The notes under the pieces are model-generated. The model was not told where the DNA came from and did no database searches. It saw only the letters and a program-made list of their open reading frames with translations. From a virus: a DNA stretch of 64,000 nt. The position numbers were made by a program, and so were the translations under genes. Where the stretch lies: positions 50,076-114,075 of the IMG/VR virus record IMGVR_UViG_3300045988_122291. One strand, given 5' to 3'. Shown here one piece after another: positions 16,030 to 56,624 of this stretch; within the stretch, counting starts at the first letter, position 1, and every line of letters starts with the position of its first letter.

Positions 16030-16129
16030 CGTACCACCTCCTTAGAGATGACACGGTTTACGTTACTGTGAAATGCCCCCCCCAAGTGAGCGCATAGTTT
16101 GGTAATTCATAATATTTTCTCCTTTGTTT
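16030..16129 (-). promoter_or_regulatory. poly-G uORF leader L1
   Basis: SD GGAGAA + uORF 16110..16063 (MNYQTMRSLGGGISQ*). G8 tract = C-run 16076-16083. The current frame stops 33 nt before the P1 ATG; the G7/G10 frame is open to the TGA overlapping ATGA at 16029. Confidence 0.6.
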
Positions 16130-16411
16130 TTAATCTTTCTTAGGCGTAGTATAAGACTTAGCGTTTTCACTGTCGCCCATACCAAGAACACCATTTTGTG
16201 TAGTCGGGTCAACAAGTGCGTTCCATACGTTGACACAGACAAGGAAGAGACAGTAAGGATTACTGATAGTACCCTTCAGCACGTTGAGCACGCCTGCCCA
16301 TGTGGTCAAATCTGCCGCTGTTAGACCTGCGTAAGCAAGTGCAGTAGCGAATGCACCAAGAATTACATTTACCCAAAACGCATAGTTTTTAATTCTCACC
16401 TTTAGATTCAT
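16130..16411 (-). CDS. holin (phage_holin_1-like)
   Basis: 93 aa, hydrophobic helices, polar tail DPTTQNGVLGMGDSENA; 1-nt overlap with endolysin stop. Confidence 0.7.
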   Translation of the reverse strand: MNLKVRIKNYAFWVNVILGAFATALAYAGLTAADLTTWAGVLNVLKGTISNPYCLFLVCVNVWNALVDPTTQNGVLGMGDSENAKSYTTPKKD

Positions 16412-18135
16412 TACTCTTCACTCCCATACATACCCACTCTATCGTTAATAACAAGAACTCGTAGCAAATCTTCACTTAGGTCAAGACCCTTGCCATTACC
16501 CTTGAGATAGCCCTTATTCACGAGCTTAATGATAGTGTCCTTACCCCAGTCTGGAACTGAAGCAATGCTATCATATACCTTATTGTACTTAGCGTACACT
16601 TCTTCAGCTACATTGCCAGCAACCTTCTTAGCTTCGGTCTGAGCAATAGCTGTGGTTTCTGCTTTAGTCAAATCTTCCACTCCTTTAACCATGTTTAGGA
16701 AATTAGTCCACTGTTCATAATGTCGCACGAAGGGGTCTGGACAATTACCTACAATAAATGTTTTTGTACCTTGGCGCACAAGAATATATCCTGTTGGCAC
16801 ACTTACACAAGACACTTTAGTTGTACGAGTTTTTACACTCTTCTGAACACCACCAATACTATAATTAGCTGTTAAGCGATCAATAGCAAGATAATCATAA
16901 CGAGTGCTTCTACCTAATCGTGTTTTGTTAGTACGATACCCCTTAGTCGCGCAAACAGCTTGTACAACGTCTAAGTTATTTTGAATAGAAGAAGTATAAA
17001 GATGTCCTGCTTCGCAACCGTCTACTTGTAAACATTCGTTCCAAAATACGTCATATTGGTGTTGATTCATTTCCAATAAATTATATTGGAAATGCTTATC
17101 TTTAAGCCACTGTTCACACCAATAGTAAAGGTCTGTGCCATAATTACGGTAACTTACACTACCATCTTTCTTGTTAGAAACAGTATAGTCAATCATTAGG
17201 TTATCAAGAATCTCTTTAACTCTATCAATCTTGCGTTGTTTCTTAACATGAAACTCAATGCCACATACATCTTGGTAAGTTCCCTTCATATAATGTCCGT
17301 CACCTTGTACCCATACAAGGAATCGAATTTCATCATCAGTGAGAGGTAAACCAGACCCAATATACATAGCACCGTTTTTAACTAAGTTTTGTCGAGAGCC
17401 TGTAAGCATATCTCCCCATAGTTGCTCACGCCATTTATATGTTCCAGTCTTTTTATTAAAATTATTGTTTGCCGCCCACATACGATGATTAGAAGTTGCT
17501 TCAAGACCATGACAGCTTAGAACTTCAGCTTCATAAGGCTCAACCACGCTACTAACAGCGCCAAAAGATAGTCTATCAGTATTAGTGTCATACTGCATAA
17601 CTTCTTCTCCAACCTTAATATCTCCAAGAGCCTTCCAACCTTCGCGTGTTAGAAGTTCGGTTGAATCCAAAGGTAAACAATACTTATGTGTAACATGATA
17701 GTGCATACATACATGCTTAATATCAACCCCATACTGTTCCATAAGCCATTGCACGAGCTTTACAGTACGCTTCTGGGTTTCCATAGTAATTACATATTCG
17801 CCATTCTTCCAGTCGCTGCACATTTCAATACCAATGGAATTAACGTTGCGACAGCTATTGTAATAATAGCCTGTTTCACTACCACAATGCCATGCAGTAT
17901 TAGCAAGGTTTACAGTCTGCCAAATTTCGTTCTCATCAACAAAGAAATGTGCGCTTGCATTAAGCCCACTACAACGAGCAAAATAATCTGCATTGTTCTT
18001 TGCAGTATCGCCCTTGCCAGCAGTAAAGTGAATAACAATCCATTGAATCTTATGCTTTACGCCATTCTTTGTGCGACCATACATAAAATTGGAAGGATTG
18101 CATTCCTTAAATTGAAAATATGGTTTTTCTGCCAT
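16411..18135 (-). CDS. N-acetylmuramoyl-L-alanine amidase endolysin (Amidase_2/PGRP) containing an intein; SLH-like C-terminus
   Basis: IVIHFTAG, AHFFVD, WHCG, HVTHKY|...|CPDPF; C-terminal VPDWGKDTIIKLVNKGYLKGNGKGLDLSEDLLR. Confidence 0.85.
   Translation of the reverse strand: MAEKPYFQFKECNPSNFMYGRTKNGVKHKIQWIVIHFTAGKGDTAKNNADYFARCSGLNASAHFFVDENEIWQTVNLANTAWHCGSETGYYYNSCRNVNSIGIEMCSDWKNGEYVITMETQKRTVKLVQWLMEQYGVDIKHVCMHYHVTHKYCLPLDSTELLTREGWKALGDIKVGEEVMQYDTNTDRLSFGAVSSVVEPYEAEVLSCHGLEATSNHRMWAANNNFNKKTGTYKWREQLWGDMLTGSRQNLVKNGAMYIGSGLPLTDDEIRFLVWVQGDGHYMKGTYQDVCGIEFHVKKQRKIDRVKEILDNLMIDYTVSNKKDGSVSYRNYGTDLYYWCEQWLKDKHFQYNLLEMNQHQYDVFWNECLQVDGCEAGHLYTSSIQNNLDVVQAVCATKGYRTNKTRLGRSTRYDYLAIDRLTANYSIGGVQKSVKTRTTKVSCVSVPTGYILVRQGTKTFIVGNCPDPFVRHYEQWTNFLNMVKGVEDLTKAETTAIAQTEAKKVAGNVAEEVYAKYNKVYDSIASVPDWGKDTIIKLVNKGYLKGNGKGLDLSEDLLRVLVINDRVGMYGSEE
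16744..17679 (-). other. intein (312 aa) with LAGLIDADG homing-endonuclease domain
   Basis: Block A CLPLDSTELLTREGWKALGDIKVGEEV, block B LEATSNHRMW, LVWVQGDGHY, terminal FIVGN followed by the +1 Cys of CPDPF; occupies aa 153-464 of the lysin. Confidence 0.75.
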
Positions 18136-18161: not shown

Positions 18162-18184
18162 AAGGGGAGAATATATCTCCCCTT
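18162..18184 (-). terminator. intrinsic terminator-like hairpin
   Basis: AAGGGGAGA / TCTCCCCTT arms with 5-nt loop, followed on the minus strand by TTTT. Confidence 0.55.
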
Positions 18185-18192
18185 ATTTCAAA

Positions 18193-18396
18193 TTAAAGAC
18201 CGTTATCAGCAAGTAGCTTGCGATAATCAGCGGACAGGAGAGTTGCGCCAGTCTTTTCCTCGCGCCACTTAATGTAGACCGCACGTGCGAGGTCATCACG
18301 AGGAATGTTGTGCTTGTTGTCCCACTGGTCGAGCTGTACACCAATGTCACCGGGGAGCTTTGCGATGTGTCGATGTTGTAGTTTGTAATTGTACAT
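18193..18396 (-). CDS. hypothetical protein (67 aa)
   Basis: Start at ATG 18396 behind AAAGGAGAAG; last gene before the terminator. Confidence 0.5.
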   Translation of the reverse strand: MYNYKLQHRHIAKLPGDIGVQLDQWDNKHNIPRDDLARAVYIKWREEKTGATLLSADYRKLLADNGL

Positions 18397-18427
18397 ATTT
18401 TTTTCTTCTCCTTTGTTTGCTTGATTT

Positions 18428-18823
18428 TTATTCAAAGTAGCCTATTTCAATTTTATCAAAATAGTCACTCAAATAACCACTTAAACTTCTAATGTGTATT
18501 TCATCTCGGTCGGAATTATACCAAACTGAAAATAATGAGTAATTTTGCCTCGGATAGTTTTTGGGTGATACATAGAAATTATTTTCTTTGTCATCGCTAC
18601 TAATATCTCCCATAAAATTAGTGGGGAAAATAATAACTTCTTTTCCATCTGAAGTTTCTCTGTAAAATCTAAAAAGAATATTGTTTTTCGGCGTGCGATA
18701 TAAATTTGTATTGTATAGCGTTAAATTGTAATCATTCGGCATATTCCATGATTGTGTTACATGAAACACCATAGTGTCTCCGACACTTTTAGTTTCCTGT
18801 TTATTAGTGACAATAGCATTCAT
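18428..18823 (-). CDS. MNGIVTGK-family paralogue P3 (131 aa)
   Basis: MNAIVTNKQETKSVGDTMVF ... KIEIGYFE; own SD GGCGGTGA, no uORF, 19 nt after the P2 stop. Confidence 0.7.
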   Translation of the reverse strand: MNAIVTNKQETKSVGDTMVFHVTQSWNMPNDYNLTLYNTNLYRTPKNNILFRFYRETSDGKEVIIFPTNFMGDISSDDKENNFYVSPKNYPRQNYSLFSVWYNSDRDEIHIRSLSGYLSDYFDKIEIGYFE

Positions 18824-18842
18824 ACTGTCACCGCCTTTGAAG

Positions 18843-19145
18843 TTACTTTATGGAAATTCGATAGAATTTTGCATTTAATCCTTCTCTGTTGTTTGTTGCC
18901 CCCATTATATTTCCATTTTCGAAATATAAATGAACCGATGGTGCGTCTGGACTGACAGAAAAAGTTTTTCCGTCCCATTTTCCAATAGAGAAATCGTAAC
19001 TGTAAAGAATATAAACACAAGGGTCGTTCGCTTTTGGTGTTTCTATTACTGTTCCATGGTATTCTATCCAAAAAGAACTGTTGTACACTATTTCGAACTC
19101 TTTGCTTGTTCCTAATCCAATGGGCAAAGTAATAATTCCGTTCAT
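18843..19145 (-). CDS. MNGIVTGK-family paralogue P2 (100 aa, divergent)
   Basis: Starts MNGIITLPIGLG; preceded by leader L2. Confidence 0.6.
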   Translation of the reverse strand: MNGIITLPIGLGTSKEFEIVYNSSFWIEYHGTVIETPKANDPCVYILYSYDFSIGKWDGKTFSVSPDAPSVHLYFENGNIMGATNNREGLNAKFYRISIK

Positions 19146-19216
19146 TTACTCTGCCCCCCCCAGTTTAATCTGAAGAATGCTCATTGCTCAAATTCCTTTC
19201 TGAGCAATGAGAAGGT
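19146..19216 (-). promoter_or_regulatory. poly-G uORF leader L2
   Basis: uORF 19184..19146 (MSILQIKLGGAE*). G8 tract = C-run 19154-19161, length fixed by ORF-track coordinates. The TAA stop abuts the P2 ATG (TAAATG). The uORF start lies inside the 11-bp hairpin 19180-19211. Confidence 0.6.
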
Positions 19217-19591
19217 TTATTCAAAAGTGCCGATTTCTACTGAAGAAAGGTTATTTCTCATTTTAAAATTATCAGAAACTCCCAAAGCAAGTCTTATGCT
19301 GGGGTCTGAATATTTTTTTACAACCTCTACCCAATCTGCTTCGTTAGGCGAAAGATATGTCGCAATCGTCGAACTGTCGTTATCTACCATTACAAAGCGC
19401 ATTGAAATATAAGCTACTCTGTCACCAAAAGATTCTATTTTTAAGAAATAAGGTGGCTCAAGATAAGAAGTATTTGGCACATAAAAATACATGAGTGCAG
19501 TTGCTTCTGTAGGAACACTGCCTACTAAAGCAGTTTTCCATACCAAACTTCCAGCCTGTTTCTCTTGCTTACCAGTCACAATACCGTTCAC
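19217..19591 (-). CDS. MNGIVTGK-family paralogue P4 (124 aa, GTG start)
   Basis: (V)NGIVTGKQEKQAGSLVWK ... SSVEIGTFE. Confidence 0.7.
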   Translation of the reverse strand: MNGIVTGKQEKQAGSLVWKTALVGSVPTEATALMYFYVPNTSYLEPPYFLKIESFGDRVAYISMRFVMVDNDSSTIATYLSPNEADWVEVVKKYSDPSIRLALGVSDNFKMRNNLSSVEIGTFE

Positions 19592-19746
19592 TCTTGTGCA
19601 CCTTCTTTCGGTGCATACTTCTCATTGCTCAAATAATTTAGTGGGAGACTATGCCCCCCCCCAGTTGAAACTGAGGTTGACTTACAAATACACATTTTTG
19701 TGTCTCCTTTGTTATGTGTTGTTTGTAATTTGAGCAATGGGAAGGG
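19592..19746 (-). promoter_or_regulatory. poly-G uORF leader L3
   Basis: SD GGAGA + uORF 19695..19588 (35 aa). G9 tract 19654-19662, confirmed by the APPQ translation of the plus-strand ORF 19491..19733. Its TGA overlaps the P4 GTG (GTGA). SD hairpin 19597-19615. Confidence 0.65.
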
Positions 19747-20103
19747 TTAAGAAAATAATTCAAAACCTAAATTACTATATTCATTAGTAGTAATAGTATT
19801 GGTATTGAAATTTATGGTAAGCGTTGCAACTGAAGAGCTACCTATGCCATTAAGAGTGATAACCGATTGTTTATAAATAGCCCCTGTTTCATATCCAGAA
19901 CTGCTATTTATAACAATCGCATATTTCTCTTGAGGAAAAATCACACAATAGGTCGTATAATAACTACGATATGTTTCAGTAGCAATAACTGAATATTTAT
20001 CTATATCAGTAATCGTTGCATTACCATTGTAGTATTGCCGAACAGCAGAAGTTGGCACTTTACCACCAGTTGTTTCAATCTTACCCGTTACAATTCCGTT
20101 CAT
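19747..20103 (-). CDS. MNGIVTGK-family paralogue P5 (118 aa)
   Basis: MNGIVTGKIETTGGKVPTS ... NLGFELFS. Confidence 0.7.
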   Translation of the reverse strand: MNGIVTGKIETTGGKVPTSAVRQYYNGNATITDIDKYSVIATETYRSYYTTYCVIFPQEKYAIVINSSSGYETGAIYKQSVITLNGIGSSSVATLTINFNTNTITTNEYSNLGFELFS

Positions 20104-20262
20104 CCAACAGCACCAACTTTCTTCAGTGCTGTTCCATTGCTCAAATTAAAGTTTAGGAGAATGCTAACGCATTGCCCCCCCCCAACTGAAGTCAGGGTTG
20201 ACTGAATGTTAAACATAAATGTTCTCCTTTTGTATAGTTTTTATTTGAGCAATGGAAGGGAA
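20104..20262 (-). promoter_or_regulatory. poly-G uORF leader L4
   Basis: SD GGAGAA + uORF 20216..20100 (38 aa). G9 tract 20175-20183. Its TGA overlaps the P5 ATG (ATGA). Hairpin 20106-20133; 12-bp arms CCATTGCTCAAA 20134-20145 / 20244-20255. Confidence 0.6.
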
Positions 20263-20616
20263 TTACCAATAAATGAAAACTGCCATATTCGTTCCGACAT
20301 ATGTTAATGTCATTGCTGAGAAATCGACAGTATACAATGCTGAAGTTGAAGTAGCGGGAGAATAAAAAGTATAGACAGTATCGGTAATTATTTTTCTATC
20401 TTCCCAATCAACGGGTTGAGGGAGATATATGATATATTTTCCTTGTGGATATATCTCATAGCATCCGTGCGAACTTATATATGTTCTAATGCACCTTAAT
20501 TTAGATATATCGAAAGGAGAATTTGTTTTATCAATAACAGGTCTTTCTATGCTTGTAGGCACAGTATCACTTATACTTTGCTTTTCTTCAATTTTACCGC
20601 TAACAATCCCATTCAT
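20263..20616 (-). CDS. MNGIVTGK-family paralogue P6 (117 aa)
   Basis: MNGIVSGKIEEKQSISDTVPTS ...; C-terminus divergent. Confidence 0.7.
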   Translation of the reverse strand: MNGIVSGKIEEKQSISDTVPTSIERPVIDKTNSPFDISKLRCIRTYISSHGCYEIYPQGKYIIYLPQPVDWEDRKIITDTVYTFYSPATSTSALYTVDFSAMTLTYVGTNMAVFIYW

Positions 20617-20785
20617 ACAGTCACCTGCTTTCGGTGACTAACATTGCTCAAAAAGGACTTTCGCCCTATTAGGAAGTTATTGCCCCCCCCAAGTGAAACA
20701 TAAGTTCACTCAGAGAAAACTTGATACGCATGGTATCACTCCTTGTTATTTAATTGAGCAACGTGTGTGAAGGGTGGTTAAGTGG
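20617..20785 (-). promoter_or_regulatory. poly-G uORF leader L5
   Basis: SD GGAG + uORF 20731..20669 (MRIKFSLSELMFHLGGAITS*). G8 tract 20683-20690. The current frame stops 52 nt before the P6 ATG; the G9/G6 frame is open for 24 codons to the overlapping TGA. SD hairpin 20620-20638. Confidence 0.6.
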
Positions 20786-21127
20786 TTAGGAAATTTCGAG
20801 AATGCCAAGTTCTAATGAGTTCATACATTCGCTAAAAGGAATGAAACGTGAAGCAGAATTAGTTCGAACCATACAAGCGCCTTGCCACTGGCTACAATAA
20901 ATGTTGTCTGGTAAATCCAGTGTTATGTGCCTTTCATCATCTCGCGAAATCACGAAATTTTTCACGCAAATTAAAGTAATATTATTACTTTTATCTATAA
21001 TACGAATATACTTCAAAGCATTATAGTCAAAAGTAAAATTTGATTGACTTAAATCAATCGACTGTTCACTCTTAAACACCATACTACCAGCAGTCTTTTC
21101 AATCTTGCCAGTTACTATACCATTCAT
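20786..21127 (-). CDS. MNGIVTGK-family paralogue P7 (113 aa)
   Basis: MNGIVTGKIEKTAGSMVFKSEQ ... SLELGILEIS; ATG 21127 preferred over the GTG at 21130. Confidence 0.7.
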   Translation of the reverse strand: MNGIVTGKIEKTAGSMVFKSEQSIDLSQSNFTFDYNALKYIRIIDKSNNITLICVKNFVISRDDERHITLDLPDNIYCSQWQGACMVRTNSASRFIPFSECMNSLELGILEIS

Positions 21128-21250
21128 CACAAGACCTCCTTTCGGAGGTTGCCAATCCTGTTGCTCAAAGGAAAGGCATTTCCAATCATTAGGTTAGAAC
21201 AATGCCCCCCAAGTGAATGAGAGTTTTAGTCTTAATCATATGTATTCTCC
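21128..21250 (-). promoter_or_regulatory. poly-G uORF leader L6
   Basis: SD GGAGAA + uORF 21239..21189 (MIKTKTLIHLGGIVLT*). G6 tract 21205-21210. The G7 frame is open for 26 codons to the TGA that shares its A with ATG 21127. CCTCC-GAAA-GGAGG hairpin 21135-21148 buries the SD. Confidence 0.6.
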
Positions 21251-21679
21251 TTACATATTGTCTACAATTTCGTGCATCTTATCTTCAAGATGAATCGCAA
21301 CGAACGATAGTAACGCCCATGCACAACAGAAGAATAGATTACACTGTCCAAAAAAGAAGGTAAACGGTAAGTGGCTGTAATCCCACACATCCATATGCAG
21401 GATGTTATTCAGCACTACACCAGTTAATCCTTCAAGAACTGTGATAACCACGGTTCCAATTACTACTTGTTGCCATTGCTTGAATTGGTGTTTTCCTTCG
21501 TTTAGCAGTCCTACAATAACGAAACATAGCCCGCCGAGAACTGCCATAGTCCAGTTGGTTGGTTTGCCTTTCCAAATGGTTTCGATGGCGAAGTAAAGCA
21601 TACCACCCATCACACCAAACAGCGCATGGACAAGTATTGAATTTAGTTTATGCTTCATAGCTTTAAGCCAACTTAGCAA
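21251..21679 (-). CDS. polytopic membrane protein (DUF1113 / putative ABC-transporter type IV-like)
   Basis: 4-5 TM helices, VWDYSHLPF motif. Confidence 0.55.
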   Translation of the reverse strand: MLSWLKAMKHKLNSILVHALFGVMGGMLYFAIETIWKGKPTNWTMAVLGGLCFVIVGLLNEGKHQFKQWQQVVIGTVVITVLEGLTGVVLNNILHMDVWDYSHLPFTFFFGQCNLFFCCAWALLSFVAIHLEDKMHEIVDNM

Positions 21680-22343
21680 GCATAGCGTCCATCTGAGCCT
21701 TTGCAGAAGCCAATACCTTAACTTCTTGTTCTGCCAGCTTACCAGTTAGTTCAGTTGCAAGGGTTACTGCCTTAACAGCGTCCTTATCTTCACAGCTATT
21801 TACATACTGTTTTAGCAAGTTACCGTGTGTAGTCAGCTTAGTGATGAGCGTTTGCATACTCACGTACAAGCTGACAATATCAGCCTTTGGATAAATTACA
21901 CATTCCTTGCCGTCAGCATGGTAAGGAAATTCTTCAACGCCCATAACAACTGCATTAAAGATATTACCAATGTTGGCTTGGTCGTTTGCTGTTAGGCTGA
22001 AATGTTCATCACCATAAGAAGTCTTAACGTCAACGCCAGCATAAATAGTTTGCTCAACTGAATTGTTAAGAGAATTGATAACTTGACCACGAAGTTCTTC
22101 AATAGTCGGCTCATAAGGAGTAGGAGCTTCTTCCTTGTCCCAGTGAACCGTATTACCTACGCATTCCCAAATCTTATAATCTGACTTCTTGAGAGTGCAA
22201 AGTTCTTCGTCAATGTCAGTGACAAATCGAATTGTATCACCAAGTTCAATATCATGAACCTTATCAAGCGTAATGTAGCAACGTTCGGAATTGATGATAC
22301 CTTCTACATTTTCATATGTTTTCTTATTAGTAATTAGTTTCAT
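21663..22343 (-). CDS. tail-fibre-associated protein (DUF4376-like, tentative)
   Basis: 226 aa following the tail-fibre-like gene; FSLTANDQANIGN segment and C-terminal coiled coil. Confidence 0.45.
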   Translation of the reverse strand: MKLITNKKTYENVEGIINSERCYITLDKVHDIELGDTIRFVTDIDEELCTLKKSDYKIWECVGNTVHWDKEEAPTPYEPTIEELRGQVINSLNNSVEQTIYAGVDVKTSYGDEHFSLTANDQANIGNIFNAVVMGVEEFPYHADGKECVIYPKADIVSLYVSMQTLITKLTTHGNLLKQYVNSCEDKDAVKAVTLATELTGKLAEQEVKVLASAKAQMDAMLAKLA

Positions 22344-22741
22344 TAAACTACCTCACCTACTACTTGAACAGTAAAATCTACTGAAGGCTTTGTAGAGCCA
22401 GAAGTTCTTAGAGTCAAAGTATTCGTACCTGTTGTGCCGTAATCTGCAAGCAATGCAAATGCAGTTTTCTGATTAGCCGCCGCTGTTGCGTCAGAACTCG
22501 GCAGAAGATAAATAATTGGCTGATAGCGCATATTGATAGCAAGACCACTAATTGTTTGTGTTTGCTGATAAACACCGCCACTTGAACTCCAACCACCAGA
22601 ATAGAAAGTAGCTGTACCAAAAACGGTCTTGCCTACTTCAAGGTTTTGTCGTGCGCCTTGGGCAGTTGTTGCACCAGTGCCACCGTCAGGGATTGGAACA
22701 GGGTAAACGTAACCTTGCCCTGTTATTGCTCCATAACCCAT
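22343..22741 (-). CDS. tail-fibre-like protein (132 aa)
   Basis: N-terminal PDGGTGATTAQGARQNL motif, common at phage tail-fibre N-termini. Confidence 0.5.
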   Translation of the reverse strand: MGYGAITGQGYVYPVPIPDGGTGATTAQGARQNLEVGKTVFGTATFYSGGWSSSGGVYQQTQTISGLAINMRYQPIIYLLPSSDATAAANQKTAFALLADYGTTGTNTLTLRTSGSTKPSVDFTVQVVGEVV

Positions 22742-22795: not shown

Positions 22796-22824
22796 ATTAT
22801 ACCACATCCTTATACATTTGTCAA
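22796..22824 (-). promoter_or_regulatory. sigma-A-type promoter
   Basis: TTGACA (22824-22819) N17 TATAAT (22801-22796); 5'-UTR hairpin AGGCGA/TCGCCT at about 22768-22784. Confidence 0.55.
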
Positions 22825-26959: not shown

Positions 26960-27150
26960 ATTATAGCATTGTTATAATTGCTTTAGTCTTATACAATCTC
27001 CACAAGCGTAGATTATACTGTTCGGTTATGCCCTAACCTACTCGGTTATGCCCTAACCTACAGTTTATTTATAATTATTATGAATAAGCTATTTCAAGCC
27101 CTTTTTTCAAGATGTTAACACTTGCGTTAATATCTCTATCATGTTTAGTA
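26960..27150 (-). ncRNA. candidate TnpB omega/reRNA scaffold (bounds approximate)
   Basis: By analogy: TnpB guide RNAs derive from the 3' end of tnpB plus the right end of the element; no covariance model was run. Confidence 0.3.
27021..27060. repeat. tandem 20-bp direct repeat (2 copies, 19/20 identical)
   Basis: ttcggttatgccctaaccta / ctcggttatgccctaaccta, 18-57 nt downstream of the tnpB stop. Confidence 0.7.
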
Positions 27151-28187
27151 TGGCACTCAGGACACTCCCAAGTACGAACATCCAGATTCTTAACCAGAGG
27201 ATTCTTGTAACCACAGTAGCTACAAGTCTGGCTACTTGGGTACATAGTAGGGACACTGATTACCGTATTACCATACCATTCACCTTTATACTTGAGCATA
27301 GCAAAGAATTTAGACCACGAAGCACTTGCGATTGACCGCGCAAGATTATGATTACGCATCATACCTTTTACATTCAAGTCCTCTATGCAGATAGTTTGGT
27401 TTTCGCGTATCAGCATAGTTGACTGCTTTTGTAAAAAGTCATTTCTTTGATTAGTAATCTTTTCGTAGATACAAGCTAACTTAATACGTTGTTTATTACG
27501 ATTGTTAGAGCCTAATTGCTTACGAGAAAGACCGCGCTGTGCTCTAATGAGTTTACGAGCAGATTTCTCTAAAAACTTTGGATTAGGAATTTTGTTACCG
27601 TTACTATCTGTATAGAAATCTTTAATTCCCACATCAATACCAACAGTTCCATTTGCATTGTTCATAAGCTGTGGCTCAAAATCAACATTGAGAACTACGA
27701 AATATTTGCCAGACGGTGTTCTTTCAACAGTGACATTGTTAATATGCCCAACTTCCATAGATTGTTTAATTTTTATATATCCCAATTTAGGCAATCTAAT
27801 ATATTTCCCTACAATGCGAATAGTATTTACATGGTTAATCGTTCTATAAGACTGATAATTGTTATGTTTATTCTTAAATTTTGGATATTTAGACTTTTTA
27901 GCAAAGAATTTTTTATAACCTTTATCTAAATCTCTTAAAGATTGCTGCAGAGCAATAGAATCCAATTCTTTAAGAAAATTAAATTCTTCTTGTTGTTTAA
28001 GTGCCGTTAGCATGGCACAAGTTCCACTATACCCAACACTAATGCCATTTTTATAGGAATCTCTACGCATAACCAGACCTTTATTATACACAAGTCTGCA
28101 ACCGCCAAAAATTCGATTTATTAAATTTTTCTGTGTTTTATTGGGATAGACCCTGAATTTAATACCTTTTTGCATATAATTTCCCAT
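27078..28187 (-). CDS. tnpB: TnpB (IS200/IS605-family RNA-guided nuclease), no tnpA partner
   Basis: [11 protein letters not shown]-terminus; RuvC residues in GIDVGIKD and [11 protein letters not shown]; zinc finger CSYCGY...[18 protein letters not shown]. Confidence 0.9.
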
Positions 28188-28256: not shown

Positions 28257-29114
28257 TCACATAAAAGCAGAGGTTTGAATCTTAGTAATCATGTTACTTA
28301 GAGCAACAGCAAGTTCTTGCCTTGTTACTTGCTTATTAGGATTGAACTTACCATAATTATCGCCCTGCATAACACCGTACTTTGTCACGATTTCAACAGC
28401 ATCACGCGCCCAATCATCAACATTATCCTTATCTTCATACATCGCCAGAGGGTCTTTCTTCAGATAAACACAAAATGCGTTATCCACTTTACGATTTTCA
28501 GACGGATTATTCACAACCTTGCCGTCATGCAGTTTTCTTACGCTACCACCGCCGTCAAGGTTCATAGCATAAAATGCTCGATATTGCAGAAAAATTGCAG
28601 TCATTTGCTCAAAAGTCATACCCGGTGCATCAACAGTAAGAATAAGAACACTGCCATCTTCTCTAACACCAATAGCAGTACGAGCTGTCTTGTAATTAAG
28701 AGTTTTAGCGTTTCCATAGTCCTTATTAGCTTTACCATTGATGATAAGCATGGGATAAGCTGTCATGAAGTCACGCCATTCATGGCTTGCATCCTTACCA
28801 TAGATAAGAGTCTGTGCGCCATTCCATACCGTGCCCATGCCTTCAAAGTTGTTCTTATAATTCTGCTCTTCGTACATAGAAACGAATGACATAACATTAT
28901 GTCCAGACTTCATGTTGAACAAACCGCCATTAACCATGATGTTCGGCTTCTTCTCGGCACGATTATAATAATGTTCAAGCATTTCAGTCGGTTCTGCCAG
29001 TTTAACAAAACGAACTTCGTCAATGCTTTCAATAGGGATAATATCAAGCTGTGTGTACTCATTTACACGGACAGTCTGAAAGTGTCTATATTCATTCAAA
29101 ATAAATCTCTCCAA
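28257..29114 (-). CDS. phosphodiester glycosidase (NAGPA/DUF2233) with C-terminal SLH domain
   Basis: VNGGLFNM, ARTAIGVREDGSVLILTVD, AMNLDGGGS; C-terminal DWARDAVEIVTKYGVMQGDNYGKFNPNKQVTRQELA. Confidence 0.8.
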   Translation of the reverse strand: MERFILNEYRHFQTVRVNEYTQLDIIPIESIDEVRFVKLAEPTEMLEHYYNRAEKKPNIMVNGGLFNMKSGHNVMSFVSMYEEQNYKNNFEGMGTVWNGAQTLIYGKDASHEWRDFMTAYPMLIINGKANKDYGNAKTLNYKTARTAIGVREDGSVLILTVDAPGMTFEQMTAIFLQYRAFYAMNLDGGGSVRKLHDGKVVNNPSENRKVDNAFCVYLKKDPLAMYEDKDNVDDWARDAVEIVTKYGVMQGDNYGKFNPNKQVTRQELAVALSNMITKIQTSAFM

Positions 29115-33312: not shown

Positions 33313-33429
33313 GCAATCACCTCCTTACTGCTTACAGCGTTAAGCCGTATGCCCCCCCCAAGTGGAAACAAAGTTTACTAATTTAAACATAAAAATGCCC
33401 TCCTTTAATTTATGTTATGAGGAAAATCC
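33313..33429 (-). promoter_or_regulatory. poly-G uORF leader L7
   Basis: SD GGAGGG + uORF 33390..33340 (MFKLVNFVSTWGGHTA*). G8 tract 33352-33359. The current frame stops 27 nt before the P8 ATG; the G7/G10 frame is open to the TGA overlapping ATGA. Confidence 0.6.
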
Positions 33430-38716: not shown

Positions 38717-39973
38717 TTATAATGCCCCACAAATTTTTCTCCTTTCAGTCAAAAACGAAGTTTTTGTACTTACAAAAAGAAGATTTTTATAATTTATAGA
38801 GCCATTATTTACTTTAATTCCTGTAAGATTCCGAATATCAAAATATCCACTGTTTCTTCTTCCGAAAACAAAATATTCTTCACCTTTGTATTTAACTTTA
38901 TCAAATAATCTAAAACCTTTAACAAAATACGGTGCTTGATTGTTTTTTCTAAGCCCTCCTTTGTAAATTTTTTGCTTGTGTATTTTTCTGTTATGACATC
39001 TAACCTTTTTTTGAAAATAATAATATCCAAGAGATTGTGCATTTGGATTACCACTAATACAACGAGCATCTATATAATGTCCTTTTGGTAAATTATGCGA
39101 AATTCTAACTCGCTTAGTAATATATCCATAAGTTTCTTGCACACTTGAATATTTTTTCTTTAATTCAAGAATTAAAGTTTTCTTCATAACGTTCATAAAA
39201 GTAGCATCTCTAAAAGATTTTCCGCTACAAACTGTATTTGGTAATTTAATCAAACCTTTATGATAGTCTCTGTGACATGATTTGCATAAAGTAACTAAAT
39301 TACTTGGAGAATTGCCACCAGTTTTGCGAGACTTAATATGATGAACATTTAAGATTTGGTCTTTAGACTTGCCTTTGCAACATTGACAAGTATGATTATC
39401 TCTAAATAATACATATTCTCTTACGTTCCAAAAGCCTTCTTGCTCTCCATGCTGATACTCTGTATTACTAATATTTGGATTTTTGAGTTTTTGAGTGTCA
39501 AAAGAAGCTACTTCAACAATTATATTCTTGATAGGAAGAATGTGACAAATATTGTCAATAACTGTTAAATGTGTTTGTACCTTTTGCTTAACGCTCGGTG
39601 CTAACCACCCCTTCTTTTTTGAAGAAACGCGATTATTAAATCTTGGCTTTCGATACCTCGTTTTTCTATATCTTCGTGCTCTTCGACATTCTTTTCGAGA
39701 AGAAAGCAAATTAACAATATCATTTCTCAACTCGATTTCTGCTTCATACATTACTTTTGTTTGAGTAGAAGCAGATGCTCCAATATACTTGCTCCCTGCA
39801 TCAATTCCCAAACTAATATTTTGAACATATTTAGTAGAATTATACAAAAGTTGTATAACAAATGGACATCGTTTTATTACTTTAGCTTTTCCTTCTTTTA
39901 GCAAACGTCTAACTTTACCATGTCTGGAAGTAGGCATAAGGGGATTGCCTTGAGCGTCTAAAACATAAACCAT
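38717..39973 (-). CDS. iscB: IscB-type RNA-guided nuclease (PLMP + split RuvC + HNH)
   Basis: N-terminal NPLMPTSRHGKVRRLL (PLMP/RRXRR), RuvC-I LGIDAGSKYIG, Arg-rich bridge CRRARRYRKTRYRKPRF, RuvC-II IVEVASFD, HNH CQCC...NVHHIKSRKTGGNSPSNLVTLCKSCH, RuvC-III HYIDARC. Confidence 0.85.
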   Translation of the reverse strand: MVYVLDAQGNPLMPTSRHGKVRRLLKEGKAKVIKRCPFVIQLLYNSTKYVQNISLGIDAGSKYIGASASTQTKVMYEAEIELRNDIVNLLSSRKECRRARRYRKTRYRKPRFNNRVSSKKKGWLAPSVKQKVQTHLTVIDNICHILPIKNIIVEVASFDTQKLKNPNISNTEYQHGEQEGFWNVREYVLFRDNHTCQCCKGKSKDQILNVHHIKSRKTGGNSPSNLVTLCKSCHRDYHKGLIKLPNTVCSGKSFRDATFMNVMKKTLILELKKKYSSVQETYGYITKRVRISHNLPKGHYIDARCISGNPNAQSLGYYYFQKKVRCHNRKIHKQKIYKGGLRKNNQAPYFVKGFRLFDKVKYKGEEYFVFGRRNSGYFDIRNLTGIKVNNGSINYKNLLFVSTKTSFLTERRKICGAL

Positions 39974-40169
39974 TATTTACCTCACTTATCAAATAAGTAA
40001 TTCAGACAAAAGTCTGTTGTGTAACCTTCGCCAATGTTGTAATAGCTTTTTACATTTAGCACACTGATTTAATGCCAAACAATAGAGCAAAGGACTAAGT
40101 TAAACATCCTTTGGTATTATAACTAAAACAACGTAGTCATTAAAGACTTAGGCTAATTAGAACTCTTAT
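39974..40169 (-). ncRNA. candidate IscB omega-RNA (bounds approximate)
   Basis: 196-nt non-coding gap immediately 5' of iscB, where IscB omega-RNAs are encoded; contains hairpins (CAGAC/GTCTG, TCACTTAT/ATAAGTAA). Confidence 0.4.
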
Positions 40170-41006
40170 TCAGAAAACAAGAGTTCTAATAGCTTCGTTA
40201 ATCTGATTCTGTTCATGCTTAATGTAACGAGTAGTAGTAGCGATAGAATTATGTCCCAACATTGCACTAATAGTTGCTACACCTACGCCATTAGCATTAG
40301 CAATAGTAGCCGCTCCCGCTCTAAGCGCATGATTAGTGATTTCATTCCAGAACGGAATGCCAGCACGCTTTGCGGTCAACTTCAGCATCTTGTTAAGATT
40401 GCTATTATCAAGATGTTCACCACGTTCAGAAGTGAAAAGATACTCACCATCTGCACGTTCAAACTTGATATAGTTATCAATGCTTTCCTTTGCCTGTTCG
40501 TTGATGTAAATCGTGCGTTCCTTCGCACCCTTGCCGAGAATAACAATCTGATTGTCAATCATGTTATTGTAATCCTCAAAAGTGATAGAAGTCAGTTCAC
40601 TAAAACGAAGTCCGGTAGAGCAATACAGAGCAATAACTGCAACATCTCTGAACTTTTTGCAGTTATGAAGCATCTTGCTTACGTCCTCTGCGGAGATATA
40701 ATGCTTTTCCTTGTTCTTAATCTTAGGAGAAGTAAAGTCAAGAGCAGGATTCTCATTGATAACCTTGGCAGAAGTCAGAAACTTGAAGTAATTTCTAACT
40801 GCACTAATCTGGATATTCATGGATGCGGTAGACAGATTGCTGATAGACGCTTTCCATGCGGTCAAGTCGAGGAAAGTGATTTCTTCGACAGGCTTGTTAA
40901 CGAACGCCAGCATCTTATCTACATAAAGCAGATAATTCTTGATAGTGTTTTTGGATTTCTTATCAGCTACCAGAGAAGCCTTGTAATACTCGTTAATGTT
41001 AGTCAT
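40170..41006 (-). CDS. tyrosine recombinase / integrase (XerC/D-like)
   Basis: SAM-like N-domain; HALRAGAAT and LGHNSIATTTRYIK catalytic motifs; start at ATG 41006 behind GGAGAG. Confidence 0.85.
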   Translation of the reverse strand: MTNINEYYKASLVADKKSKNTIKNYLLYVDKMLAFVNKPVEEITFLDLTAWKASISNLSTASMNIQISAVRNYFKFLTSAKVINENPALDFTSPKIKNKEKHYISAEDVSKMLHNCKKFRDVAVIALYCSTGLRFSELTSITFEDYNNMIDNQIVILGKGAKERTIYINEQAKESIDNYIKFERADGEYLFTSERGEHLDNSNLNKMLKLTAKRAGIPFWNEITNHALRAGAATIANANGVGVATISAMLGHNSIATTTRYIKHEQNQINEAIRTLVF

Positions 41007-41183
41007 TTGAAATCTCTCCTTCGTTTCTTGATGTATGTATTGTAACATGGTACAAGCCAAAAGTCAATAGATTTTTCAAAAAAATCAGAAAAGAATTTCC
41101 CGACTCATACATGGCAAGATGAGTCGGGAATTATGGAGGTGAAAAACCATGAAGAACGAAGCCTTCTATGGCACAGATATGGT

Positions 41184-41258
41184 TGGCACAAGACTTAGGA
41201 CTTTAACCTAAACGAACAGTTTTGGAGACTGTCATGCTAACAATTACATCAGTCTTGC
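41184..41258 (-). tRNA. tRNA-Trp: tRNA-Trp (anticodon CCA)
   Basis: Hand-folded cloverleaf: acceptor GCAAGAC/GTCTTGT, anticodon arm ACAGT-CTCCAAA-ACTGT, T arm TTAGG-TTAAAGT-CCTAA, discriminator G, encoded CCA. Confidence 0.7.
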
Positions 41259-41261
41259 ATA

Positions 41262-41336
41262 TGGAGCGCTATGGCGTAATCGAAACGCTATCTTCAGTTT
41301 GGAAAACTGAGGTTCTTACCGTTAAACTAATAGCGC
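41262..41336 (-). tRNA. tRNA-Gly: tRNA-Gly (anticodon TCC)
   Basis: Acceptor GCGCTAT/ATAGCGC, anticodon arm TCAGT-TTTCCAA-ACTGA, discriminator U, encoded CCA. Confidence 0.8.
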
Positions 41337-41452
41337 AAATTGTCCCGCGACCCAAAGGTACGTCATGTGCACTTGACTTGTTTTCCACTGGGAATCGCAG
41401 TACAGTCATGAGCTAAACCGCAATAAACGTGAACTTAACAAACGGGGAACAT

Positions 41453-41528
41453 TGGTAGCGATGGTGCGATTCGGACGCACGAAATCATGGAGTCAAAGTC
41501 CATTGCCTTACCGCTTGGCTACACCGCT
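41453..41528 (-). tRNA. tRNA-Gln: tRNA-Gln (anticodon TTG)
   Basis: Acceptor AGCGGTG/CATCGCT, anticodon arm ATGGA-CTTTGAC-TCCAT, T arm GTGCG-TCCGAAT-CGCAC, encoded CCA. Confidence 0.75.
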
Positions 41529-41694
41529 ATATTTCTCCTACGATGACGGGTCGCAGGAGAGAAATATGAAATTATGCCGACACGTTTGAGCGTGTCTATT
41601 AAATTGTTTGTCTGCCGTACCAGACGATGTGTGTGGAATGTATATTTTTATTTTCTGCACTTAATACAAAAAATTTACCTTGTACGGAAGGCAT

Positions 41695-41770
41695 TGGTCT
41701 CCCATCGCAGGCTCGAACTGCGGACTTCTTGATTAAAAGTCAAGTGCTCTACCAACTGAGCTAATGGAAG
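41695..41770 (-). tRNA. tRNA-Lys: tRNA-Lys (anticodon TTT)
   Basis: D arm GCTCAGTTGGTAGAGC, anticodon arm CTTGA-CTTTTAA-TCAAG, T arm CGCAG-TTCGAGC-CTGCG, encoded CCA. Confidence 0.85.
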
Positions 41771-41778
41771 ATTTGATT

Positions 41779-41792
41779 GGGGCAAATGCCCC
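41779..41792 (-). terminator. short GC hairpin (terminator or processing site)
   Basis: GGGGCA-tt-TGCCCC between the small CDS 41798..41902 and tRNA-Lys. Confidence 0.35.
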
Positions 41793-41797
41793 ATCAC

Positions 41798-41902
41798 TTA
41801 TCGTAGATTGTAACGGTCTACACCGCGCATATTCTTCTGCATCTCAAGATTTGCTTCATAGAGACCACGGAAGAAATGCTTAATATTGCTCTTAACACCC
41901 AT
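41798..41902 (-). CDS. small protein (34 aa)
   Basis: GGAGGTGA SD 6 nt before the ATG; own TTGACA-N17-TACAAT promoter overlapping the sigma gene 3' end. Confidence 0.45.
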   Translation of the reverse strand: MGVKSNIKHFFRGLYEANLEMQKNMRGVDRYNLR

Positions 41903-41938
41903 CGGTATCACCTCCTAACATTATCTATTGTATCACAC

Positions 41939-42553
41939 TTATCTCATTTTGTCAAGTGTTTTTAGAATTTTTTCGATATAAATTTTTCTTTCAGCGTCAT
42001 CGTCACTATAACGTTTTACATATCTGGAATTGCGCTTATAATAATCTCGCAAATTTCTCACAACAGCAGAACATCTACTAAAAGAAACACCTGTATCTTC
42101 GCTTAGTTCTCGGCACGTTTTATTCTCAATTCTACCAAGTAAAACTTTAAGCGTTGTCAATGGTAGTTTTTCGATAAACCATTCTGCCCATATCTTCCCC
42201 AGCGCTTCAGCTTCAGTATTTTGCTTAGAAGCAATAAATTCTTCTAAAGCATATGTTGCTTTTTCGCTGACCGAAGAAACTTCTGCGCTTAAAGAAAGTG
42301 TTTCCATGCCAAATAAGCTATCATGTCTCATTACACTGCGTATACTATTAAGCATACATTTATAAGCAAGCGTAGAAAATTTTGTTGTGCCATTAAAAGT
42401 TAATGCCGCTTTGCACAATCCAATAGCACAAATATCATACCATTCGTTGATACTTAGAGCTTGATTATTCAAAAAAGAATAAATTAGATTGTGGTTTTCT
42501 TCTACCAGCTTTCTTTGTTCATTATTCAGTTTTGAAATTTTTGTTTCGCGCAT
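41939..42553 (-). CDS. sigma-70 family sigma factor (phage-encoded, small)
   Basis: 204 aa; region 2-like N-half and region 4 HTH (CRELSEDTGVSFSRCSAVVRNL). Confidence 0.7.
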   Translation of the reverse strand: MRETKISKLNNEQRKLVEENHNLIYSFLNNQALSINEWYDICAIGLCKAALTFNGTTKFSTLAYKCMLNSIRSVMRHDSLFGMETLSLSAEVSSVSEKATYALEEFIASKQNTEAEALGKIWAEWFIEKLPLTTLKVLLGRIENKTCRELSEDTGVSFSRCSAVVRNLRDYYKRNSRYVKRYSDDDAERKIYIEKILKTLDKMR

Positions 42554-42577
42554 AAGTATCTTCCTTTTAATTTTTAG

Positions 42578-42651
42578 TGGAGCGAATGACGGGTACTGCC
42601 CCCGCGTCCTCAGTTTGGGAAACTAAAATTCTACTATTGAACTACATCCGC
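42578..42651 (-). tRNA. tRNA-Gly: tRNA-Gly (anticodon CCC)
   Basis: Acceptor GCGGATG/CATTCGC, anticodon arm TTAGT-TTCCCAA-ACTGA, discriminator U, encoded CCA. Confidence 0.75.
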
Positions 42652-42893: not shown

Positions 42894-42909
42894 TTCGTTC
42901 CTTTCAAAA

Positions 42910-56520: not shown

Positions 56521-56624
56521 CAGCAATCACCACCTTTCGGCAGTCGATTACTTAACCAATGCCCCCCCCAAGTGGCGAGGTGGTTTGATAATGCTAAATG
56601 TTCTCATAGGGAACACTCCTTTTC
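56521..56624 (-). promoter_or_regulatory. poly-G uORF leader L8
   Basis: SD GGAG + uORF 56607..56548 (MRTFSIIKPPRHLGGALVK*). G8 tract 56562-56569. The G7/G10 frame is open to the TGA that shares its A with ATG 56520. CTGCC-GAAA-GGTGG hairpin 56530-56543 covers the SD. Confidence 0.6.

Follow-up and report, generated by a model that had tools for sequence, protein, structure and literature searches.

A nine-member gene family with polyG-bearing leaders in a large gut phage: candidate phase-variable, exchangeable host-interaction cassettes

A 64,000-nucleotide stretch of viral DNA (IMG/VR record IMGVR_UViG_3300045988_122291, positions 50,076 to 114,075; the window hereafter) carries nine paralogous genes for small proteins that resemble each other at their ends and have cores that can hardly be aligned. 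What would a phage do with nine versions of one small protein, and what decides which of them is made? We lean, if only modestly, towards the view that these genes form a phase-variable, cassette-shuffled family of host-interaction proteins, whose translation would be set by hypermutable polyG tracts lying in short leaders ahead of the genes. The leader anatomy, the maintained reading frames, the hairpins, the tract-length polymorphism and the exchange of cassettes can all be read in the DNA of the window and of related phages. The genes are referred to by names such as P20786, and leaders 1 to 5 are those of the tandem copies (Table 1).

Leaders, polyG tracts and coupled reading frames

Alignment of the upstream DNA revealed, ahead of eight of the nine family genes, a leader with conserved elements: an AAGGAG-type ribosome-binding site and an ATG, then the motif (T)CAC(T)T-G(6-9)-CA. 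These leaders, the most informative feature of the locus, had escaped the initial annotation. A tiny upstream open reading frame (uORF) reads through the polyG tract in each leader (for example MRIKFSLSELMFHLGGAITS); it is present in 8 of 8, preceded in seven by a strong Shine-Dalgarno (SD) sequence of the AAGGAG type and in the short leader of P18843 by a weak AGGA. Between the tract, within this separate uORF, and the family gene the distance is 8-89 nt. In the leaders of the tandem copies an inverted repeat, CATTGCTCAAAT ... ATTTGAGCAATG, spaced about 101-112 nt and showing compensatory changes (e.g. ca/tg to tg/ca), encloses the uORF and the tract. A hairpin directly ahead of the family start codon is another of the conserved leader elements.

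Long polyG tracts are confined to these places. Tracts of G7 or longer occur at seven sites in the 64-kb window, all upstream of family genes, where shuffled sequences would give 0.86; the eighth leader tract is a G6 (leader 1), likewise upstream of a family gene. The same confinement to family leaders was seen in two 20-kb relatives, L001 and L002, and a scan of the adjacent late-gene region found no tract of G7 or longer.

In each of the seven long leaders of the window, exactly one frame past the tract is open up to the family start codon. This frame runs for 13-25 codons after the tract, the other two stop after 0-6 codons, and each of the frames other than the coupled one is closed by two to four stops. 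The stop of the long frame overlaps the start of the family gene, as ATGA, GTGA or TTGA (+1) or as TGATG or TAATG (-2). When the relatives are included, a single open coupled frame is found in 13 of 14 distinct leader types. Spacer shuffles put the chance of a coupled frame at 0.17-0.42 per leader and the product at about 10^-7.5, a figure qualified by the paralogy of the leaders. The uORFs of 60 leaders, from 16 loci, fall into two size classes, 12-20 or 33-39 amino acids (aa), and no others. The only window leaders that lie in the coupled frame (called ON here) are the G9 leaders of P19747 and P19217. With the tract inside the uORF and one frame reaching the gene start, the leaders have what characterizes a homopolymer contingency locus, namely a run of at least about 7 nt in which a change of one unit would matter.

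A hairpin covering the SD sequence of the family gene was predicted in 10 of 11 leaders (z -1.8 to -5.2; -9.5 to -15.7 kcal/mol), and it lies in the stretch that only the long frame crosses. Its support consists of folding z-scores for each copy, stem position and loop length being too variable for a common alignment. The stems, such as ACCTCC-GAAA-GGAGGT, GTCACC-GAAAGCA-GGTGAC and CAGCACTGAAG-AAAG-TTGGTGCTG, differ in sequence and keep their architecture and place, which points to compensatory change.

These features suggest how a leader might work. Each long leader, with its own ribosome-binding site and its tiny uORF through the tract, would act as a switch: in two of the three frames the uORF would stop 0-6 codons past the tract and the SD sequence of the cassette would stay in its stable hairpin, leaving the gene OFF or low, while in the third frame the uORF would run through the hairpin and end at the ATGA or TGATG overlap, so that the terminating ribosome could reinitiate and the gene would be ON. 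Slipped-strand mispairing at replication, by adding or removing a single G, would flip each cassette independently. Most of the contigs compared have no more than one or two leaders ON, and these are not the same from contig to contig. The effect on protein output is the part of this scheme that we infer.

The short-leader pair P18843/P18428 (genes A and B) adds a variation. The uORF of the short leader has three outcomes according to its frame: a TAA abutting the ATG, a stop within ATGA, or entry into the +2 frame of the gene. In P18843 this +2 frame holds 107 codons without a stop, against 13.6 stops expected after synonymous resampling (P(0)<1/3000). Eight short-leader modules in the relatives have the same frame open for 107-118 codons, and 8/8 end at the ATGA of the next family gene; for seven distinct paralogues resampled with synonymous codons, 0 stops were found vs 8-14 expected (P(0)<1/3000 each). 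By comparison, the same frame contains 10-19 stops in each of the remaining eight family genes of the window. The +2-frame peptide is basic and poorly conserved, with 23-28% identity vs 37-40% for the main frame. As the frame is kept open while its peptide diverges, selection seems to act on openness and not on a second protein. One frame of the short leader would thus pass through the first gene in +2 and deliver ribosomes that reinitiate at the second. In sequence, the leader architecture and the stop-free frame both depart strongly from chance. Taken as a whole, the array might be a ribosome-routing device in which polyG frames, conduit frames included, choose which of about nine interchangeable cassettes is translated; we regard this wider proposal as plausible, if short of probable.

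A leader with two polyG tracts 46 nt apart was observed downstream of a helicase gene in two relatives (L005, minus strand, 1385-1446; L030, 9585-9646). A long-type tract is followed there by a short-type tract 8 nt before the ATG, an arrangement that would make a two-stage switch.

Tract lengths, cassette exchange and rival explanations

If the tracts are hypermutable, orthologous leaders should differ in tract length. Relatives were taken from ENA assemblies, IMG/VR and JGI or ENA metagenomes, lengths were read from assembled contigs, and leaders with near-identical flanks were compared as orthologues. The leader 4 site (flanks GTTTCAACT ... CATAGT) has G9 in the window, G8 in L001, G10 in L002 and G5 in L035. 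Three further sites vary likewise: with flanks GCTTCACTT ... CAATAA, G8 was found ten times, G9 twice and G7 once; with flanks CTTTAACTT ... CGTTCT, G7 and G8 five times each; and with flanks CCCGTCACT ... CATACG, G8 once and G9 twice. Leader 2, G8 in the window, has G7, G8 or G9 in its orthologues, and the G9 of leader 3 corresponds to G8 in L001, L002, L005 and L035. Apart from such differences L001 and L002 are nearly identical, and a tract is kept at every leader across independent ENA, IMG/VR and Logan assemblies.

The lengths place 14 of the 60 leaders in the coupled frame, and 46 are OFF. The ON leader of L001 and L002 is that of the P20786 orthologue, the window has leaders 3 and 4 ON, other leaders are ON in L005, L030, L033, L034, L035, L037 and L040, and none is ON in L039. 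A shift from OFF to ON needs +1 in some leaders and -1 in others, which argues against one-directional programmed frameshifting and fits stochastic slippage as in bacterial contingency loci.

PolyG tracts were also noticed outside this family. In three IMG/VR contigs of 74-107 kb, unrelated to the window phage, G8-G10 tracts lie inside long ORF-like sequence (L004, 8667 and 9634; L020, 11993; L026, 11660 and 12553). The surroundings resemble tail-fibre repeats (...CTTGGACTGGGGGGGGGTAAGCACTTGGG...), and the same tract sites recur in the three contigs at G7, G9 and G10; the fibre genes of a further group of phages may be phase-variable through polyG.

The cores themselves are exchanged between relatives. 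A BLAST map of the window against L002 gave 90-97% DNA identity in the leaders and at both gene ends (first 10-20 codons, last ~6 codons), and no similarity in the cores (19753-20073, 19235-19532 and 18419-19180). The core of P19747 is replaced in L001 and L002 by an unrelated 136-aa cassette behind the same leader, that of P19217 is replaced in L002, and L002 has an extra 131-aa cassette. Leader 1 of the window is a chimaera of leaders 1 and 2 of L002, joined between the polyG tract and the start codon. The cassette that follows a NAGPA-SLH gene also differs between L001 and L002 (124 aa vs 146 aa). With leaders and gene ends near-identical and cores unrelated, the conserved ends therefore double as recombination joints, and the suggestion of the initial annotation that the family consists of swappable modules gains support, since the cassette junctions between the window and L002 lie in these ends. 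It is at these homologous joints, leaders and gene ends alike, that related phages exchange cores. Integron-like cassettes were considered and set aside: the structure differs and no integrase is nearby, the sole tyrosine recombinase lying about 20 kb from the array (40170-41060); the attC consensus was not formally compared.

The window has a TnpB element instead of a family cassette at the NAGPA-SLH site. Two TnpB genes (OrfB_IS605 / Cas12f-like) are present on the minus strand, at 27078-28187 and 45557-46657, and the former stands directly after the NAGPA-SLH gene (28257-29114), where L001 and L002 have a cassette with a polyG leader; it seems, judging from this synteny, to have replaced the family cassette.

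How well does a translational switch account for all this? Several points weigh against it. The ON share of 23% is close to the 33% expected from random length drift. The leader of P32932 is an exception without an SD hairpin, and the short dispersed leaders close their OFF frames so near the gene (30-36 nt before the start) that a ribosome terminating there might already melt the hairpin. The mixed direction of the shifts proves nothing about DNA switching, and assembly error in homopolymers could still underlie part of the length differences. The share of ON leaders, the error-prone assembly of homopolymers and the missing P32932 hairpin would all suit leaders that are constitutive intergenic modules, serving in mRNA processing or stability, in ordinary coupling or as joints of the PeSL kind (early promoter plus stem-loop terminator; PMC2839356, PMC4122927), with polyG lengths that are neutral or noise and all paralogues made; the leaders and the conserved gene ends clearly do act as recombination joints. 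Neutral tracts, however, would keep neither a single open frame in 13/14 leader types nor a stop-free alternative frame of 100-118 codons. The presence of tracts at every leader in the three independent sets of assemblies and the lack of any G7-or-longer tract elsewhere in the 64 kb also speak against constitutive leaders, and we consider them unlikely.

It could also be that the tract is a programmed recoding site, at which frameshifting on G_GGG_GGG or RNA polymerase slippage provides a fixed low level of each cassette protein. G_GGG_GGG is a perfect slippery run, and many leaders have a hairpin 1-5 nt past the tract (e.g. AATGC GTTA GCATT, CTTACG..CGTAAG), a spacing that is classic for -1 frameshifting. 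The shift needed is nonetheless -1 or +1 depending on the leader and changes with tract length among relatives, and a programmed site would be expected to hold its length, whereas orthologous tracts span G5-G10. Recoding in this sense appears quite unlikely to us, and it is not exclusive of DNA switching. Hardly credible is a reading in which the uORFs encode functional peptides, their ...LGG motif being like that of double-glycine bacteriocin leaders (consensus LSxxELxxIxGG), and the family genes are mere neighbours. One uORF (MRIKFSLSELMFHLGG followed by AITS) does resemble the consensus, but the remaining peptides do not fit it, the short forms have only 2-5 residues after GG, the peptides are unconserved beyond the DNA motif CACTTG(n)CA, and there are no processing or export genes nearby.

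The protein family and its possible function

A six-frame motif scan and a greedy ORF map of the window bore out the earlier count of nine paralogues of 100-131 aa; the minus strand is the coding strand for every gene in the array part. The initial annotation had placed seven copies in tandem at 18428-21130. We count six, within 18428-21127, the other three being at 15676, 32932 and 56161, and the seventh nearby copy (15676) lies beyond the holin gene. The family N-terminus reads MNGIVTGKIEK and the usual C-terminus SxExGTLE. The long N-terminal motif first described (~19 aa) is complete in six of the nine, with about 10 residues left in P20263 and P19747 and MNGII in P18843; the C-terminal motif, ascribed to most members, is indeed present in 6/9. 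When the nine are aligned, invariance is confined to M1, N2 and I4, and over 39 sequences (the nine and 30 database homologues) the invariant positions are M1, N2, I4, K8, E10, G14, G108 and E111, the consensus being MNGIVTGKIEKTAGSMVFK ... SxExGTLE(IA). A G-x-hydrophobic-E motif thus stands at both ends (GKIE, GTLE), and that Glu is the last residue in many members. The cores, taken as the proteins minus 20 N-terminal and 12 C-terminal residues, proved as unalignable as first reported: BLAST linked only 20786 with 56161 and 19747 with 20263, and hhalign of the core groups gave a probability below 2% for all pairs except one at 22%.

The family is not a chance resemblance. An exhaustive profile search of 1.84 billion representatives gave 89 matches at E<=1e-3, 87 of them genuine. 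These 87 cluster representatives (50% identity) measure 42-164 aa, most of them 110-146 aa, and most cover nearly the whole profile, about ten being shorter or partial. The other two matches, of 5,703 aa and 1,019 aa (20 and 7 'stretches'), were rejected as leucine-rich-repeat or Listeria-Bacteroides-repeat surface proteins; they are repeat-summed artefacts, because each single domain scores at most 10 bits. A word-indexed search yielded only 46 homologues, none functionally annotated and the few named ones 'hypothetical protein'. Homologues are mostly on short contigs, the largest being metagenomic Caudoviricetes contigs of about 100-114 kb, and one homologue-bearing metagenome-assembled genome carries the label Lachnospiraceae. 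Neither DNA nor protein matches to the family were found in 50,697 GenBank phage records (tblastn, megablast), the GTDB genomes held no relative and hence gave no prophage or host assignment, Rfam had no family for the leaders at gathering or E<=10 thresholds, and the family profile showed no relationship to the neighbouring 132-aa, 226-aa and 80-aa proteins. Pfam found no consistent match in 39 homologues; a DUF6718 match (E 0.03) concerned one member only and was taken as chance.

AlphaFold2 models of two members with unalignable cores were all-beta with eight strands: P20786 (predicted local distance difference test, pLDDT, 78; predicted template modelling score, pTM, 0.69) and P32932 (pLDDT 75, pTM 0.67). 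The elements follow one order in the two models (four strands, short helix, four strands), with conserved strands at each end and the conserved first ~15 residues disordered. The predicted folds are therefore alike instead of unrelated, and the cores look like extreme divergence on one scaffold rather than unrelated inserts. The weak top Foldseek matches of the P20786 model included the T7 gp17 tip (template modelling score 0.40), adenovirus fibre heads and gp12; we give these fibre-tip matches little weight because the P32932 model does not reproduce them.

We consider it most likely that the family proteins act at the phage-host interface. The initial annotation had offered receptor- or cell-wall-binding modules and injected or anti-defence effectors as candidate roles. 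Tentatively, the members might be interchangeable binders or adhesins that attach to one shared partner by their conserved ends. Synteny of the array with the two tail-fibre-like genes (132 aa and 226 aa) is constant, the conserved termini suggest a common docking site, and competition of the variants for a single site would make it sensible to express few of them together. Several points weigh against such a function. No consistent match was found for the nine proteins in Pfam, PHROGs or PADLOC, nor any match in a sequence-profile search of the PDB. Foldseek gave no hit at E<=0.001 for the two models against the PDB and one against BFVD (best E-values 0.18 and 0.016, respectively), so that similarity to receptor-binding-protein domains was significant neither in sequence (Pfam, PHROG) nor in structure; by the same token, no confident match to a housekeeping phage family appeared in Pfam/PHROG. 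The confidence of the AlphaFold2 models is moderate (pLDDT 75-78), and the tail-fibre labels of the 132-aa and 226-aa genes are weak. About 40 kb and a change of strand separate the family operon from the late structural module, and its promoter is of the host type that also serves the replication genes; promoter class and distance weaken a virion role. The endolysin and holin genes likewise lie outside the late structural module.

The same setting, an operon and dispersed copies among early and middle genes with host-type promoters, near helicase, RusA and primase genes, would suit intracellular or injected effectors, e.g. anti-defence proteins, in which the N-terminal decapeptide ending at Glu10 is a packaging or processing tag. 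The 15 N-terminal residues are conserved yet modelled as disordered, G-x-hydrophobic-E recurs at both ends with many members ending at that Glu, and quick cassette turnover is typical of arms-race genes. A simple N-terminal tag, however, leaves the conserved C-terminus unexplained, neither PADLOC nor known anti-defence proteins gave a match, and the constant synteny with two tail-fibre-like genes and the position of several copies next to cell-envelope genes (endolysin, holin, NAGPA-SLH) fit effectors poorly; we rate this alternative only a little below the binding modules. The remaining probability goes to something other than binding modules and effectors.

Genomic setting and comparison with known systems

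Table 1. Features of the cassette family and its operon in the window. ON and OFF denote leaders in and out of the coupled frame; aa, amino acids.
Feature	Position	Strand	Remarks
P20786	20786..21127	-	113 aa; N- and C-terminal motifs complete
P20263	20263..20616	-	117 aa; ~10 N-terminal residues in common with family; core akin to P19747 core
P19747	19747..20103	-	118 aa; ~10 N-terminal residues in common with family
P19217	19217..19591	-	124 aa; GTG start
P18843	18843..19145	-	100 aa; gene A of short-leader pair; N-terminal match MNGII only
P18428	18428..18823	-	131 aa; gene B; without own leader; start 20 nt past P18843 stop
P15676	15676..16029	-	117 aa; dispersed copy, beyond holin
P32932	32932..33312	-	126 aa; dispersed copy, downstream of DnaB-like helicase gene
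P56161	56161..56520	-	119 aa; dispersed copy, downstream of RusA-like gene
Leader 1 (P20786)	21128..21250	-	SD and uORF 21189-21239 (MIKTKTLIHLGGIVLT); G6 at 21205-21210; OFF
Leader 1 hairpin	21134-21150	-	ACCTCC GAAA GGAGGT; predicted to sequester SD
Leader 2 (P20263)	20617..20785	-	uORF 20669-20731 (20 aa); G8 at 20683-20690; OFF, G9 would couple
Leader 2 structures	20754-20764 / 20641-20651; 20618-20640	-	inverted repeat; SD hairpin
Leader 3 (P19747)	20104..20262	-	uORF 20100-20216 (38 aa, ends in P19747 ATGA); G9 at 20175-20183; ON
Leader 3 structures	20243-20255 / 20134-20146; 20106-20133	-	inverted repeat; SD hairpin
Leader 4 (P19217)	19592..19746	-	uORF 19588-19695 (35 aa, ends in P19217 GTGA); G9 at 19654-19662; ON
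Leader 4 structures	19728-19739 / 19623-19634; 19597-19615	-	inverted repeat; SD hairpin
Leader 5 (P18843, short type)	19146..19216	-	compact hairpin 19180-19211; G8 at 19154-19161, 8 nt before ATG
Leader 5 uORF	19146-19184	-	MSILQIKLGGAE; stop TAA abuts ATG
P15676 leader	16030..16129	-	uORF 16063-16110; G8 at 16076-16083; SD hairpin 16030-16055; OFF
P32932 leader	33313..33429	-	uORF 33340-33390; G8 at 33352-33359; OFF; SD hairpin not significant (z +0.65)
P56161 leader	56521..56624	-	uORF 56548-56607; G8 at 56562-56569; SD hairpin 56522-56552 (z -5.2); OFF
Stop-free +2 frame through P18843	18820..19143	-	ends in TGA of P18428 ATGA start; proposed ribosome conduit
Promoter	22796..22824	-	perfect sigma70/sigmaA-type TTGACA-17-TGnTATAAT; head of operon
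132-aa protein	22343..22741	-	GGTGATTAQGARQNL motif; weak tail-fibre similarity (phrog_11393, E 9e-4)
226-aa protein	21663..22343	-	PHROG 1348 'tail fiber protein', E 7e-9
142-aa membrane protein	21251..21679	-	4 transmembrane segments; PF06541, CmpB-like
80-aa ORF	18193..18435	-	last operon gene; overlaps P18428 end by 8 nt; no family match
Intrinsic terminator	18162..18184	-	operon end, just upstream of endolysin

The six tandem copies appear to share one operon, bounded by the promoter at 22824 and the terminator (18162-18184), and to have no promoters of their own. It contains the genes of the 132-aa, 226-aa and membrane proteins, the six paralogues and the 80-aa ORF. Only one sigma70-like match (10/12) falls within the leaders, overlapping leader 1, and leaders 2-5 have none; such matches are no commoner in the array region than in shuffled sequences. 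The neighbours named in the initial annotation are in place, with the GGTGATTAQGARQNL protein, the 226-aa protein and the membrane protein upstream and an Amidase_2 endolysin and a Phage_holin_1 holin downstream, except that the 80-aa ORF and the terminator intervene before the endolysin. Relatives keep this ORF too; its product is probably 67 aa long, started at an internal ATG that follows an SD sequence. The DUF4376-like label given to the 226-aa gene was not borne out, as the protein has no Pfam match at E<=0.01 and matches PHROG 1348 instead; it has no PDB match either.

The 132-aa protein had weak phmmer matches (E 0.003-0.2) to immunoglobulin lambda light chains over residues 14-122, and its GGTGATTAQGARQNL stretch weakly matched the PDB tail fibres 7z47 and 6cl5; it may be an immunoglobulin-like domain behind a fibre-type linker motif. 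The endolysin gene (16411-18135, minus strand) encodes 574 aa in the window vs 263 aa in L001 and L002. Its insert of 312 residues (aa 153-464, ~16744-17679) begins with Cys after ...HKY and ends ...VGN before another Cys, and is intein-like, probably with a homing endonuclease.

The window is identical to a 114,030-bp Logan contig over their overlap of about 13 kb. Near-consensus extended -10 promoters (TTGACA-17-TGnTAnAAT) number 24 on the gene (minus) strand vs 3 on the opposite strand in window positions 1-60000, an unusually dense and uniform set of host-type promoters; the same region encodes a primase, a DnaB-like helicase, PolIII alpha, a RusA-like resolvase and a RecD-like helicase. 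A 634-aa protein at 60938-62842 on the plus strand matches PF05183 (RdRP; E 9e-13) and is followed on that strand, in the Logan contig, by YonJ-like, YonG-like, TerL and further late-region genes (L041, 12070-21905). It looks like a YonO-type single-subunit RNA polymerase heading the late module, as in SPbeta, and the phage is therefore SPbeta-like in plan. By PolIII alpha, the phage is closest among cultured ones to PMBT24 and CB457P2 of Enterocloster (39% identity), with SPbeta-like phages at 33%. It is a gut phage of 114 kb, and its host is probably a Gram-positive member of the Lachnospiraceae.

Several mobile or selfish elements were observed in passing. An IscB-type protein (RRXRR and HNH, 418 aa) is encoded at 38717-39973 on the minus strand, and a full-length HEARO/omega RNA (Rfam RF02033, 100 bits) lies immediately upstream at 40016-40190 (minus strand), so that the two, by their similarity to known families, make up an OMEGA-type RNA-guided nuclease element within the phage genome. 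Seven tRNA genes cluster at 41187-45208 (minus strand) beside the tyrosine recombinase gene (Phage_integrase), and the phage may be temperate or carry a Xer-like resolvase. A GIY-YIG gene (L041, 17909-18757) is located directly downstream of TerL.

If the phase-variation reading holds, a large gut phage toggles a whole family of exchangeable proteins one by one. Phase variation is a classic form of bacterial bet-hedging and is documented in phages for very few systems. The mechanism would fall outside the standard catalogue, with the tract in a coupled leader ORF and not in a promoter or gene, and it would supply a new reason for a long overlapping open frame, the delivery of ribosomes instead of coding. 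A literature search found no description of a switch with polyG in a coupled leader ORF or of the conduit-frame subtype; if real, both homopolymer phase variation by way of uORF termination-reinitiation and selection that keeps a non-coding alternative frame open for coupling would, to our knowledge, be described here for the first time, the latter in viruses or elsewhere. The host-interaction repertoire of a gut phage would then have heritable, reversible diversity. Such tracts make single-genome assemblies misleading as to what a phage population expresses, and could explain why phage preparations vary in host range or defence sensitivity. Other viromes could readily be searched for the same simple set of rules (SD, uORF, G(n), one open frame, hairpin, ATGA), and an unannotated family with 87 representatives is an obvious target for structural and binding studies.

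Known systems resemble this array in parts. XepA and YomS are small beta-sandwich proteins of about 118 aa, encoded in the lysis regions of PBSX and SPbeta between tail-fibre-like and holin/endolysin genes. The family shares this setting, small beta proteins near tail-fibre-like, holin and endolysin genes in an SPbeta-like phage, but XepA and YomS appeared neither in the sequence-profile search of the PDB nor among the 50 best matches of either Foldseek search against it. T4 internal proteins carry an N-terminal capsid-targeting sequence, and they and the T2-type gp38 adhesins are encoded at polymorphic loci (PMC3157838). Like them, the family joins a short conserved docking or targeting terminus to a highly variable remainder at polymorphic loci. 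The likeness to the internal proteins extends to a conserved N-terminus of about 10 aa that ends in Glu and is followed by unrelated sequence, a resemblance only. Unlike in the T4 and T2 proteins, both termini are conserved, and there is no homology.

With regard to cassette exchange, the closest parallel is found in the PeSL cassettes of T4-type phages, in which conserved intergenic motifs flank variable, uncharacterized ORFs and form the junctions of indels and replacements (PMC2839356, PMC4122927). Here too, the replacement and indel junctions between close relatives (the window and L002; L001 and L002) fall in conserved leaders. In contrast to PeSL, these leaders have neither a consistent sigma70-type promoter nor a U-tract terminator, and possess instead a uORF, a polyG tract and an SD hairpin.

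A precedent for polyG phase variation in phages is provided by the hypermutable polyG tracts in receptor-binding-protein genes of Campylobacter phages (Sorensen et al. 2021, Cell Rep 35:109214, as cited in PMC10877375 and PMC11868660). As in those phages, polyG tracts in the present phage would give lysate subpopulations that express different host-interaction genes. In Fletchervirus the tract is reported to lie inside the regulated receptor-binding-protein ORF; in the present phage it is part of a uORF distinct from the gene, and the two would be coupled by way of a ribosome-binding site locked in a hairpin. Further differences are the eight switchable leaders for a nine-member family, the probably Gram-positive Lachnospiraceae host, and the lack of sequence similarity to any of the 50,697 phage records.

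The Neisseria opa family, with ~11 phase-variable loci (PMC11868660, PMC3745409), is a bacterial counterpart. In both cases paralogues combine a conserved framework with hypervariable parts, are placed behind independent 5'-repeat switches of which few are ON, and gain variants by recombination. The opa proteins, however, are bacterial outer-membrane proteins, and their repeat is a CTCTT pentamer in the region coding for the signal peptide, whereas the repeat described here is a homopolymer in a coupled uORF.

Finally, translational coupling is classically based on a stop/start overlap and a sequestered downstream SD sequence that is opened by the upstream ribosome, as in the UGAUG of trpB-trpA or in MS2 coat/replicase. 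The leaders of this phage show such overlaps (ATGA or TGATG), and a hairpin covers the SD sequence of the downstream gene. They depart from textbook termination-reinitiation coupling in that a dedicated leader peptide (12-39 aa) serves as the upstream ORF, its reach set by a tract that would be hypermutable, and in that one subtype would use the alternative frame of a whole gene as its coupling path.

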